Positions 9,853-13,081 of a stretch of DNA of 13,081 nucleotides are shown one piece after another. Within the stretch, counting starts at the first letter, position 1. Each line of letters opens with the position of its first letter. The stretch comes from a virus (lineage: Duplodnaviria > Heunggongvirae > Uroviricota > Caudoviricetes): the IMG/VR virus record IMGVR_UViG_2568526681_000001; one strand, 5' to 3'. A program made the translations under genes and the position numbers. The notes under the pieces are model-generated. The model was not told the origin of the DNA. It ran no database searches and saw nothing but the letters and a program-made list of their open reading frames with translations.

Positions 9853-10064
9853 CAGAACCTCGCCAGTTTATATCCCGGATCCCCCCGTCGCCGCGCAGTC
9901 ATGGCAGCAAGACGCCGCTCCCACTCCTGACGCCCCCGTCGGATCTCGGACAGATTTTCCATGGTCATCTGCTGACCATTAAAAGTGACGGATTTTCCGT
10001 CCAGAACTGCCATTTCCGCATCGATATAACGCTGGATCATGGCTTCAATATCATTCTGGTTCAT
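9852..10064 (-). CDS. W: Head completion / head-tail joining protein (lambda gpW-like), about 70 aa
   Basis: Small ORF between terminase large subunit and portal. ...AEMAVLDGKSVTFNGQQMTMENLSEI...ARRRGDPGY resembles recalled lambda gpW (...[31 protein letters not shown]...TQRRRGPAGF). I chose ATG at 10064 (6-nt spacing from GGAGG, ATGA overlap with the A stop); ATG at 10070 is the alternative. Confidence 0.7.
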   Translation of the reverse strand: MNQNDIEAMIQRYIDAEMAVLDGKSVTFNGQQMTMENLSEIRRGRQEWERRLAAMTARRRGDPGYKLARF

Positions 10065-12160
10065 AACCATCCTCCGGAAGTCACCCAGGGATTTTCCTCA
10101 TCGGGTACCGTTTTTTTTCGTTTCTTTTTTCTGTCCGGCTGGAGCACTGGCTCCGGCAGAACAGGTTGCTCAGTGTTATCACTGACGCACTCCAGCCAGG
10201 TTTCCCTGCATGCCCATTCTGGCGCATCCGGCCACTGAATTTTCTCGTAACCATGCAGAATGACCAGAGCCTCGGCATACACCATCAGGTCAAAGGCTTC
10301 GTTAGCCCCCCGCCCTGGTTTGCTCCACTTTCCGTCACTGCTCCGCTCTTCATACGTCAGTTCGTCGTAAAACCAGCTCCCCAGCCAGTCAGGAAAATGC
10401 ACATAGCCGGGACCCGGTGAATCACGCCATAACGCATTATTAACCCGGTCTTTCAGGGCATCCGTCTGAAGAAGCCAGAGTGGCACATCACCTGCGGCCT
10501 GCGCCCGTCGGCCCGTTCGTCCGGTGTTATCAGGGAATGTACGGGTGATCAGTTTTGCTCGCCGGATGCTGTCGCCCTTAAACAGGTAAATACTTTTACC
10601 AAGTCCATCACGACGGCAACGACGCCAGAATTTATAGGCATTATCAGTGACCCCGTCTTCACCGCCGGAGTCCACCGCCATTGCCATCAGTCGCATTTGT
10701 TGAGAAGGATCGGAGGCCAGCGGCCAGCTTTTATGAAAAACATCCGTCAGCAGGACATCCCAGTCTTCCGGATAGCTGGCCGGATCAATTCGCTGGCTCT
10801 CCCCGTCGCTGTCACCGCGCAATGACTGCGTGATGTTGTAACGATCAATAATCCAGCGTTCGCCACGACTGCCATAGCCCGTTACCTGAACCACAAAACG
10901 GCGATGACGTCCCGCCTGCACATCCACTGTCGCCACAAGGAAATTAACGCCATCCGGCACACTGCGTGAAGGAACTGGCTCTGCCCGCTGCTCAAGCAGT
11001 TCACTTTTTCGTTGCTCCATGCTGGCGCGGGGAAGATAAGGCAATCCCCAGTCGGTGTTGATAACCGCCCTGAGTGTTTCTTCGCTTCCTGTCGCTTCAT
11101 ACTCCTGTTCTGCAGTCAGTAATTTGTAAACCAGTTGCGCCCAGGTCTGATACGCAGCAGCTGGCCCTTCCATCCAGAAGCTGGCAATCCTTGAATTACG
11201 TGGCGTTCCGGTAACATTCCCCTCCATGTCAATGTGCTCACCATCCCGCAACCAGACCCCACGTCCGTTCAGTTCACGTTTCATGTCTGAGGTGATTCGG
11301 TTACCACAATGAGGACATAATATATGAGCCGATTTACTGGCTTTTACAGGATCAGGATTGTCACGATACCCCGTCATAGTCTCCATGGATGGCTGAAAAT
11401 ACCCCCCACAATCCGGACAGGGCCAGTACCAGCGACGACGATCACCACGGTTATAGAGTGACAGGATCCCCGTAGTGGGGGGAGCTTCATGTGGAGAGGT
11501 TTTCCGCCACTTACTGTCCGAAATTTCGCGTCCGGGTGAACTCTCCACAAGTGTCATCCCTGCTGACATAAACGTCGTGGTACGTTTGGAAGCCAGGGAG
11601 AAACCATCACCTTCACCATCAATATCATCAGGCCAGCGATCATAATCTGTTAATGCTACAAATCGATAATCAGAAGACGACATTATATTAACTGACGGCC
11701 AACCAATTTTTAGATAATTACCCGCCTTAAAAGTCTTATCATGGACGTTATTATCATTGGTTCGTGGGCTCATTCGCCGAACAACCTCTTTACTGACCCG
11801 GAATGTGCGATCAAGGCGTTTTCTGGAATGCTCCCTTGCTTTCTCTTCTGTCATTTGAATTAACAAAAAGTCTGCAGGTTCACAAACCACGCTGTAAACA
11901 ATCCAGCCATCAATTAATCCAACCGTTTTTCCTGTTCGCGCTGGCCCGACAAAAACAACCGCATCATAGTCACGGGAAGACAAACAATTCATTGGCTCAA
12001 TGATGTAAGGCGTCAAAGATGCATCCCATGGCAATGAACTTCCCCCACCCAGTGGCACTCGCATATATTTCTCAACAGCTTCTGCCACTGGCATTCTTGT
12101 GGGTGGTTTTAGTAATTCGGAAACATCACGCCTGATAGCACTTGCAGAAGCAAAGGTCAT
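10061..12160 (-). CDS. A: Terminase large subunit (lambda gpA family), 699 aa
   Basis: Length is typical for the gpA family. Contains a P-loop-like VFVGPARTGKT and a zinc-ribbon-like CPDCGG...CPHCG, with acidic nuclease-like motifs in the C-terminal half. Start ATG overlaps the Nu1-like stop (ATGA). Sits directly downstream of the small subunit and cos. Confidence 0.9.
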   Translation of the reverse strand: MTFASASAIRRDVSELLKPPTRMPVAEAVEKYMRVPLGGGSSLPWDASLTPYIIEPMNCLSSRDYDAVVFVGPARTGKTVGLIDGWIVYSVVCEPADFLLIQMTEEKAREHSRKRLDRTFRVSKEVVRRMSPRTNDNNVHDKTFKAGNYLKIGWPSVNIMSSSDYRFVALTDYDRWPDDIDGEGDGFSLASKRTTTFMSAGMTLVESSPGREISDSKWRKTSPHEAPPTTGILSLYNRGDRRRWYWPCPDCGGYFQPSMETMTGYRDNPDPVKASKSAHILCPHCGNRITSDMKRELNGRGVWLRDGEHIDMEGNVTGTPRNSRIASFWMEGPAAAYQTWAQLVYKLLTAEQEYEATGSEETLRAVINTDWGLPYLPRASMEQRKSELLEQRAEPVPSRSVPDGVNFLVATVDVQAGRHRRFVVQVTGYGSRGERWIIDRYNITQSLRGDSDGESQRIDPASYPEDWDVLLTDVFHKSWPLASDPSQQMRLMAMAVDSGGEDGVTDNAYKFWRRCRRDGLGKSIYLFKGDSIRRAKLITRTFPDNTGRTGRRAQAAGDVPLWLLQTDALKDRVNNALWRDSPGPGYVHFPDWLGSWFYDELTYEERSSDGKWSKPGRGANEAFDLMVYAEALVILHGYEKIQWPDAPEWACRETWLECVSDNTEQPVLPEPVLQPDRKKKRKKTVPDEENPWVTSGGWL

Positions 12161-12660
12161 AATTCCACCTCATCATCTCTTTCTCTCATTTCAGTTGATA
12201 ATGCCTCACGGATATCATCAACTGCTCGTTGAGCCTCAGCGATTTGTGATGCACTCCAGCCTCGATCTCGTTCCAGTTTGTCAGGCCACGTATCCAGTAC
12301 CTGAGTAACGACCTTCAACATCAACGCCATTTCGCGATGTACGTCACTGGCAGGAACAAGTTGTTTTAATGTCGTTTCCATTTTGATACGTTCATTTTCT
12401 GACTGGAACCAGTCTTTACGCTCTTTAGGCTCCATTCGTGACGGGTCATGTATATCGGAAGCAATGACTGATTTACTCTCAAACAAAGCGGGTCCGACAT
12501 CTCTCAATGCATAAACAGGATTACCACGAACAGTACCAGCAACAGGGATATTGGCCTCCAGCAGTCTTTTTTTTACCACCTTCCTGTCCATAGCAAAGGC
12601 TTCTGCAATTTTCGCGATACTCCAGTGATAAACGTCTCCAATATTACTGATATTCGACAT
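12157..12660 (-). CDS. Terminase small subunit (Nu1-like DNA-packaging protein with N-terminal helix-turn-helix), about 167 aa
   Basis: ATG at 12660 with GGAGAGG Shine-Dalgarno 5 nt upstream (the track start at 12666 is GTG). The N-terminus SNISNIGDVYHWSIAKIAEAFAMDRKVVKKRL looks like a helix-turn-helix, and the C-terminus is acidic. Lies between cos and the large subunit, translationally coupled to it. Family assigned by position and architecture; direct similarity to lambda Nu1 is weak. Confidence 0.7.
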   Translation of the reverse strand: MSNISNIGDVYHWSIAKIAEAFAMDRKVVKKRLLEANIPVAGTVRGNPVYALRDVGPALFESKSVIASDIHDPSRMEPKERKDWFQSENERIKMETTLKQLVPASDVHREMALMLKVVTQVLDTWPDKLERDRGWSASQIAEAQRAVDDIREALSTEMRERDDEVEL

Positions 12661-12729
12661 CCCCACCTCTCCACACCAGCTCGAATATCATTTTTCTCAT
12701 TAAAAACAGGACATTAAAAACTGGTCAGA

Positions 12730-12814
12730 TGTCCCATAAAAAGCCAAATGGGACAGGTCAAAAGCTTTTTTTGCAGTAATTTTCAATAGGTTACTTGATG
12801 TGGTGGTGTCCCAT
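12730..12814 (-). promoter_or_regulatory. Candidate cosB: three copies of an 8-bp motif (ATGGGACA in gene orientation), two direct and one inverted, with A/T-rich spacers
   Basis: Plus-strand tgtcccat at 12730-12737 and 12807-12814, and inverted atgggaca at 12748-12755. A/T-rich tracts lie between them (e.g. aaaagctttttttgcag). Located between the predicted cosN and the Nu1-like start, where lambda has its R1/R2/R3 sites and the IHF site. Confidence 0.5.
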
Positions 12815-12837
12815 GAAAATTCAAAAATCAGCCGTTT

Positions 12838-12890
12838 TCCGCGACGCTCCCGCCCCGTGGCAGGCCACCCCACCGGGAGGACCCGTCAGC
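12838..12890 (-). other. Candidate cosN (nicking site, predicted 12-nt cohesive end GGGCGGGAGCGT at 12844..12855) and adjacent cosQ-like sequence
   Basis: Minus-strand read: ACGGGTCCTCCCGGTGGGGTGGCCTGCCACG GGGCGGGAGCGT CGCGGAAAACGGCTGATTTTTGAATTTTC. Lambda, recalled from memory: ACGGGTCCTTTCCGGTGATCCGACAGGTTACG GGGCGGCGACCT CGCGGGTTTTCGCTATTTATGAAAATTTTCC. The shared blocks are ACGGGTCCT, CCGGTG, ACGGGGCGG and TCGCGG. Confidence 0.65.
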
Positions 12891-13081
12891 CTGACATCCA
12901 TGACGAACGTCTGATACAACGCCTTGCATAAATGGCATCGGGATAATCCAGAAAGGAATAGCATCGTGCCCACAAGAATCTGTGTGAGTATCCTGTTTCT
13001 TCCACCCCCGCACAGGACTGGCGAGCATGAGGGACAAACCCGCGAACCATAAACGCGGTAAAAACCCGGTGTGCATCGTTT

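Follow-up and report, generated by a model that had tools for sequence, protein, structure and literature searches.

A predicted lambda-like cos site with a rare cosB-terS cassette in a Gifsy/cdtI/mEp460-type prophage of Escherichia coli

Where would the DNA of this prophage be cut and packaged, and which terminase would recognise the place? The stretch analysed here (13,081 nucleotides, hereafter the window) carries both terminase genes on its minus strand, and the initial annotation had read the segment directly upstream of them as a cosQ-cosN-cosB site. We find that this reading holds, as all elements lie where they had been placed, the ends of the phage cdtI record match the predicted junction and the layout is conserved among relatives. 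We therefore regard the segment (minus strand, 12884..12730) as, with high probability, the cos site of an E. coli prophage of lambdoid (Gifsy/cdtI/mEp460) type, most likely working as lambda cos does. What is unusual here is cosB; the cosN is already known from cdtI-type phages.

Elements of the site and the prophage around it

On the minus strand, a cosQ sequence, GGGTCCT, is found at 12884..12878 (-28 to -22 from the predicted nick, 22 nt upstream of the top-strand nick), followed by a cosN-like junction in which the predicted 12-nt 5' cohesive end, GGGCGGGAGCGT, occupies 12855..12844 (bp 1-12), with the nicks placed by homology at 12856/12855 on the minus strand and at 12844/12843 on the opposite strand. 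The junction reads GACGGGTCCTCCCGGTGGGGTGGCCTGCCACG / GGGCGGGAGCGT / CGCGGAAAACGG, CCACG and CGCGG flanking the cohesive end (coordinates checked by script), and the pattern GGGTCC-N18-28-CGGGGCGG has a single occurrence in the 13-kb window. Next to it lies an I2-like AT-rich spacer, CGCGGAAAACGGCTGATTTTTGAATTTTC (minus strand, 12843..12815, bp 13-41), and then an R3-like putative TerS site with the core ATGGGACA (minus strand, 12814..12807, bp 42-49), which probably runs on into CCACCAC. These are followed by an I1-like candidate IHF site, TTTCAATAGGTTA (plus strand, 12781..12793), matching WATCAANNNNTTR at 12 of 13 positions, by an inverted R2-like putative TerS site (plus strand, 12748..12755, bp 101-108) and by a direct R1-like one (minus strand, 12737..12730, bp 119-126), both again ATGGGACA and together forming an imperfect palindrome.

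The three copies of ATGGGACA between cosN and terS, two direct and one inverted, had thus been seen correctly, and the density of the motif elsewhere, which had been put forward as a check, is nil: the 13-kb window holds exactly these three copies, all inside 85 nt, where about 0.7 copies per window are expected by chance and 8 of 200 shuffles give three copies anywhere. In a repeat search of the window, R1 was also detected as part of an inverted repeat and of a direct repeat. A candidate fourth element, AGCTGGTGTG (minus strand, 12672..12681), stands directly before the ribosome-binding site of terS and, read as its reverse complement, is similar to the right half of R3. Between R1 and terS there is also a tandem 14-nt direct repeat (12698-12725; plus strand CATTAAAAACAGGA / CATTAAAAACTGGT), one copy of which holds another inverted GGACA. 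Predictions for the cos region gave neither a promoter-like nor a terminator-like site, and the fold of R2-R1 is no stabler than that of shuffles (z = -1.39), on which grounds a terminator or hairpin reading of this pair was set aside.

The terS gene itself (167 aa, minus strand, 12157..12660) likely starts with the ATG at 12660, which is bp 196, 195 nt past the predicted nick, in agreement with homologues beginning MSNISN. It is followed by an intact terL of the gpA type (699 aa, minus strand, 10061..12160; Pfam GpA_ATPase 6.6e-75, GpA_nuclease 7.4e-86). Large subunits of the gpA type are the class that makes cohesive ends. An 82-aa ORF (minus strand, 12828-13076) runs across cosQ and cosN and stops within I2; it corresponds to a hypothetical protein in mEp460 and PhiR55_1 and matches phrog_17397, and its counterpart in Ayreon, which goes under 'putative late gene regulator', ends short of cosN. 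As cos cleavage would split this ORF in two, the call is probably spurious; expression from circular or concatemeric DNA alone would be the exception.

Upon comparing the window with the common AH04-type prophage, we observe similarity from 13081 to 12801 (95%), which is then lost and comes back from 12105, so that one mosaic breakpoint lies within R3 and the other ~55 nt into terL. From these limits the exchanged unit extends from R3 through terS to the first ~18 codons of terL, that is, it comprises cosB, terS and the N-terminus of terL. The remaining head-tail module is 87-98% identical to AH04, and at least 80% of the window is matched in 1,793 complete E. coli genomes. The full window-type terS/cosB cassette was found in a single one of 5,426 complete E. 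coli genomes, that of strain Ch1 (NZ_CP127316.1), where it lies in a lambdoid prophage beside mlrA with 95.3% identity over the window. The protein cluster of the window TerS has ~18 members in a collection of 15 billion proteins, and a metagenome scan for the R3 region returned 15 matches, 13 of them chance matches in unrelated genes. Among 120 IMG/VR stretches with an identical cosN, none has the GGGACA R3, three other cosB types being present there. By these sequence comparisons, cosQ, cosN and I2 are common to very widespread E. coli phages and the cassette from R3 through terS to the start of terL is a rare allele, which, being rare, probably defines a separate packaging-initiation specificity, as in lambda versus phage 21.

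The same data bear on whether the site is still in use. It could be a true cos by descent but a fossil, left in a defective prophage and no longer cut or packaged in its host, and we consider this unlikely though by no means negligible. Consistent with a fossil, the window shows packaging, head and part of the tail genes only, and the terS/cosB allele occurs in that one genome of 5,426. The nearest relative, the Ch1 prophage, is annotated with frameshifts in the integrase, terL and a tail gene and with an internal stop in a W-like gene, so that relatives of the element can be defective, but these frameshifts may be assembly errors. Against a fossil, the window terS, terL (699 aa), portal gene (501 aa) and protease-capsid fusion have uninterrupted frames as long as in AH04, no cos sub-site is damaged, and the three R cores are identical, unlike what decay would leave. 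The site may still be packaging-competent, as the initial annotation had suggested, but the intact packaging and head genes speak for one part of the prophage only. The sequences show the elements with their order, orientation and spacing, their conservation and the covariation of the R motif with TerS residues 25-27; the nick positions, the binding of TerS and IHF and activity in the present prophage are what we infer.

The cohesive end and its relation to lambda and other phages

The predicted end GGGCGGGAGCGT differs from lambda GGGCGGCGACCT at positions 7, 8, 9 and 11, in agreement with the predicted 12-nt end and the four differences given in the initial annotation. Its block-by-block alignment to the lambda junction fared less evenly: the expected blocks are recovered, yet the Smith-Waterman score against lambda is 24, with shuffles having a mean of 18.6, an sd of 2.2 and a maximum of 27, and is thus only ~2.4 sd above shuffles and marginal as evidence taken alone. 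Since the score is marginal and one shuffle reached 27, the lambda resemblance is a lead and not a proof, and the weight for the identity of the site comes from the ends of the cdtI record and from a layout kept in dozens of relatives. The GenBank record of phage cdtI (AB285204.1) starts with GGGCGGGAGCGTCGCGG and ends with GGCCTGCCACG, exactly the predicted junction, so that in sequence terms its depositors set the genome ends precisely there and this cosN is already in use. The first base of one related IMG/VR contig is that of the homologous GGGCGG. Of 5,426 complete E. coli genomes, 2,055 carry a region like it; PhiR55_1, 569R4 and phi458 have identical cosQ-cosN and share cosQ-cosN-I2, and mEp460 differs by 1 base in the 12-mer, with cosQ conserved. 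An exact-match IMG/VR scan for cosN plus I2 gave 120 matches, all internal to contigs, which look prophage-derived as most bear identifiers in the style of isolate genomes.

Lambda-like phages have been defined by the Feiss laboratory by the type of their 12-base 5' extension, together with cosQ, cosN and cosB (PMC4669245, PMC9026076). Among them cosQ is highly conserved, and the left half of cosN, GGGCGG, and both flanking CG dinucleotides are positions reported to be important for nicking (PMC4669245). Natural variation of cosN is confined to bp 7-12, Gifsy-1 differing from lambda at 8, 9 and 11, and cosB of lambda, 21, phi80 and Gifsy-1 is R3-I1-R2-R1 with R2 inverted (PMC4669245, PMC9026076). 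In the window, the left half and both CG dinucleotides are as in lambda and changes occur only within bp 7-12, including bp 7, which in Gifsy-1 is not among the differences. Three R-like repeats are present, R2 being opposite to R3 and R1, and the site lies directly upstream of terS and a gpA-type terL.

The comparison with lambda itself shows an identical 7-bp cosQ, an AT-rich I2, repeats in direct, inverted, direct order with, in the window, a candidate IHF site between the first two, a small-subunit gene starting ~190-195 nt from the nick (Nu1 at bp 191, the window terS at bp 196), and a gpA-type terL. Apart from the cohesive end and TerS, there are differences of spacing and of the repeated sequence: the distance from cosQ to the nick is 23 nt in lambda and 22 in the window, and R3 lies at bp 50-65 in lambda, whereas the window core at bp 42-49 is ~8-10 bp closer to cosN, and the R2-R1 spacing of the window is shorter. 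The lambda R sequence (CGTTTCC...) is unrelated to ATGGGACA, as had been pointed out before. With cdtI, mEp460, PhiR55_1 and phi458, all with a DUF1441 TerS, the window shares the gene order and an identical or nearly identical cosQ, cosN and I2, and the terL of the cdtI/mEp460 group is ~82-84% identical to that of the window at the DNA level. What differs is cosB and terS, the window TerS being 57.5% identical to that of cdtI and 37% to that of mEp460. The Salmonella phages Gifsy-1, Gifsy-2 and Fels-1 have the same TerS family and head module, and in Gifsy-2 and Fels-1 the repeats are likewise direct, inverted, direct, but the motif is TCATCATC in Fels-1 and TTCGACACTGA in Gifsy-2, and their TerS proteins are 31-43% identical to that of the window.

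A cos site with ends other than those derived from lambda, through a shorter overhang or shifted nicks, is in our estimate improbable. The right half of cosN is variable, mEp460_4F5 being 3 nt shorter there and VT1-Sakai having 11 nt between ACG and CGCGG, and the 22 rather than 23 nt from cosQ to the nick would also fit shifted ends; however, the GGGCGG left half and both flanking CG dinucleotides are identical to lambda (PMC4669245), and both the cdtI record and the related contig start exactly at the predicted base. In mEp460_4F5 (LR595868.1), which has the same cosQ, the shorter junction reads GGGCGGGAG, a 3-nt gap and CGCGG, and reflects either natural variation in the length of the cohesive end or a fault of the assembly. 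That record has its termini 5 nt upstream of the predicted nick, a placement that we took to be arbitrary and not counter-evidence on the nick position. In the papers searched, a literal search for GGGCGGGAGCGT returned only an unrelated eukaryotic paper, and a determination of DNA ends for a phage with exactly this cosN was not found there.

The repeats as putative binding sites of the small terminase subunit

The initial annotation had called the small subunit Nu1-like, and this stands for the modelled N-terminal fold and not for the sequence. TerS belongs to Pfam DUF1441 (PF07278; 2.2e-44, 151.3 bits against a cut-off of 35.1) and to PHROG 141 'terminase small subunit' (1.4e-54); the Pfam search gave DUF1441 only and not Phage_Nu1 (PF07471), BLASTP against lambda Nu1 gave no meaningful match, and a profile search against PDB sequences gave no terminase match. 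An AlphaFold model built from 43 homologues (mean pLDDT 82.7) has as its N-terminus a winged helix-turn-helix, with helices spanning residues 15-21 and 26-35 and a hairpin formed by residues 42-51. In structure it is nearest, at modest scores, to winged HTH domains of the MerR/Xis type, among them two DNA-binding domains of small terminases (7lxs_A and 6hn7_B) and RppC, a PICI protein. As only the modelled N-terminal fold resembles the Nu1 type, TerS probably works like Nu1 without belonging to the Nu1 sequence family.

We next compared terS loci from one genome per species and from IMG/VR, which yielded 63 distinct terS-upstream regions from Escherichia, Trabulsiella, Citrobacter, Buttiauxella, Pantoea, Erwinia, Providencia, Morganella, Rahnella, Rosenbergiella and Rouxiella. 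All 63 share I2 and then a short motif at the same position, repeated in direct, inverted and direct orientation; I2 is nearly invariant in the relatives from E. coli, Providencia, Morganella, Pantoea, Erwinia, Rahnella and Rosenbergiella, and between the repeats the sequence diverges with the spacing retained. When stratified by TerS residues 25-27, with which the modelled recognition helix begins, the loci fall into classes with different motifs. Those with DRK (11 loci including the window) have GGACA in direct, inverted, direct order, with start-to-start distances of 56 and 21 nt in 10 of the 11, and those with NRS (3 loci) have CGACA, with the 56/21-nt spacing in 2 of the 3. The NRG class (24 loci) has TGTCA in the same order, and the HRD class of the cdtI type (24 loci) has another motif set. 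Fels-1, VT1-Sakai, Gifsy-2 and mEp460 have the same architecture, yet other motifs.

The motif thus switches at all three repeat positions along with TerS residues 25-27. A protein and its binding sites would be expected to change in step, as the recognition helix and the three DNA sites do here, and we take this covariation as strong comparative support for the repeats being bound by the terminase, although part of the signal is shared ancestry, the motif classes also being clades. Together with the R3-I1-R2-R1 layout, it supports the earlier suggestion that the small subunit binds the ATGGGACA copies with a distinct specificity. In lambda and phage 21, similarly, a common cosQ-cosN is joined to an exchangeable cassette of cosB, terS and the terL N-terminus, and the R sequence tracks the recognition helix, whereas for the family of the window the specificity is read wholly from covariation. 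Experiments on packaging specificity or helper packaging for Gifsy/cdtI/mEp460-type phages were not found in the papers searched.

Between R3 and R2, a perfect IHF consensus is present at the same place and in the same orientation in 39 of the 63 relatives, which is seen in 0.5% of shuffles. The IHF-like site of the window is at the homologous position with a 12/13 match, and is not significant alone, as sites with at most one mismatch arise in ~11% of shuffles. The AGCTGGTGTG element co-varies with R3 (GCTGGTGTG in the DRK class, CACCTGACAG in the NRG class and CACCTGCCAG in the HRD class) and may serve TerS as a fourth site or act in autoregulation. In Trabulsiella guamensis, whose TerS is 80% identical and the closest homologue in the one-genome-per-species scan, the R3-I1 segment is tandemly duplicated ~190 nt upstream of terS (TTTTCATGGGACACC...TTTAACTTATTGA, twice) and the R2-like element is degenerate.

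It is also conceivable that cosQ and cosN are real and the ATGGGACA copies form a hairpin or are the site of another factor, acting in late transcription or terS translation, with TerS reading for example the CACCACCAC tract by R3 together with AGCTGGTGTG. The imperfect palindrome of R2 and R1 would suit such an arrangement, as would the CACCAC common to the R3 regions of the window and the mEp460 type, and the way in which the element by the ribosome-binding site of terS co-varies with the right half of R3. We nevertheless consider it very improbable, as in independent classes all three copies of the motif change along with TerS residues 25-27, and the arrangement defined by experiment in lambda has the same order and orientation and a matching IHF site (PMC9026076). 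As for a chance resemblance to cos, for which the pairwise lambda score within the range of shuffles would speak, it is effectively refuted by the identity to a deposited phage genome end, the position directly upstream of terS-terL, the conservation across genera, the covariation and the uniqueness of the composite pattern in the window.

With the repeats read as TerS sites, the following sequence of events would account for the layout. Dimers of TerS (DUF1441, with its N-terminal winged helix-turn-helix) would bind R sites of the GGGACA type, a bend induced by IHF at I1 would join R3 with the inverted R2, and R1 would assist. The TerS-R complex would then anchor the gpA-type large subunit ~45 bp away at cosN, where staggered nicks would produce the 12-nt 5' end GGGCGGGAGCGT. 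Packaging would run toward terS, and cosQ (GGGTCCT) and cosN would end it at the next cos of the concatemer.

Reuse of the module in satellite islands and its meaning

We found the part of the window at 12885..12623 with 98-100% identity in four other complete E. coli genomes, namely GF60, TUM1886, PKF4 and PKF11. This 263-bp module extends exactly from cosQ to the first 12 terS codons, with a stop codon next in the islands, and is hosted by a ~10.5-kb PICI-like island between roxA and phoQ (in GF60, NZ_CP172185.1, locus L038 2940-3210 and locus L040 9660-19936), in which the cosN is GGGCGGGAGCAT. The island carries genes for an integrase, alpA, a repA helicase, ssb, perC, an E-like capsid, a D-like decoration protein and a Phage_Nu1-family terS; the four genomes are without a matching helper terS, and their DUF1441 terS is cut to 12 codons. 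That the whole module is copied exactly into a satellite supports its being a functional unit.

A second, lambda-type cos is found in the island at L040 18490-18710 (GCGGGTCCTTTCCGG...TTACG / GGGCGTCGACCT / CGCACGTTTTCGCTATTTATGAAAATTTTCCGG), directly upstream of the Nu1-family terS of the island and convergent with the window-type cos, so that the satellite has two cos sites of different cosB types. A PICI with two cos sites, EcCICFT073, has been described earlier, there without phage cosB (PMC6739421). In ECCNB12-2 (NZ_CP033635.1, locus L039 1440-1830), next to phoQ, a window-type cos (ATGGGACA / TGTCCCAT / TGTGGGACA) stands head to head with an mEp460-type cos, the cosB sides facing each other, directly after a ClpP-capsid fusion gene. 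These arrangements suggest that cosB modules are swapped or stacked in such islands, and an identical cos module in satellites suggests that helpers of matching specificity are active in nature.

A more far-reaching proposal, which we put forward tentatively and which may well prove wrong, is that residues 25 and 27 of DUF1441 TerS proteins specify positions 1 and 3 of an N-G-N-C-A hexamer (direct, inverted, direct, at 56/21 nt), that the window represents a rare, previously undescribed DRK/GGACA specificity, and that the roxA-phoQ PICI-like satellites captured it whole as an extra cos beside a cos of another type. If this code were true, a satellite with both cos types could be packaged by helpers of two specificities.

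Overall, the findings leave the known mechanism of cos packaging unchanged. The site marks where the prophage DNA would be cut and packaged and therefore sets the genome ends expected after induction, as well as the orientation of any cos-dependent lateral transfer. In E. coli, an identical cosQ-cosN is joined to at least four interchangeable cosB-terS cassettes, and the comparative set provides a testable map of TerS residues against R-site bases in the very common Gifsy/cdtI/mEp460-type phages of Enterobacterales.
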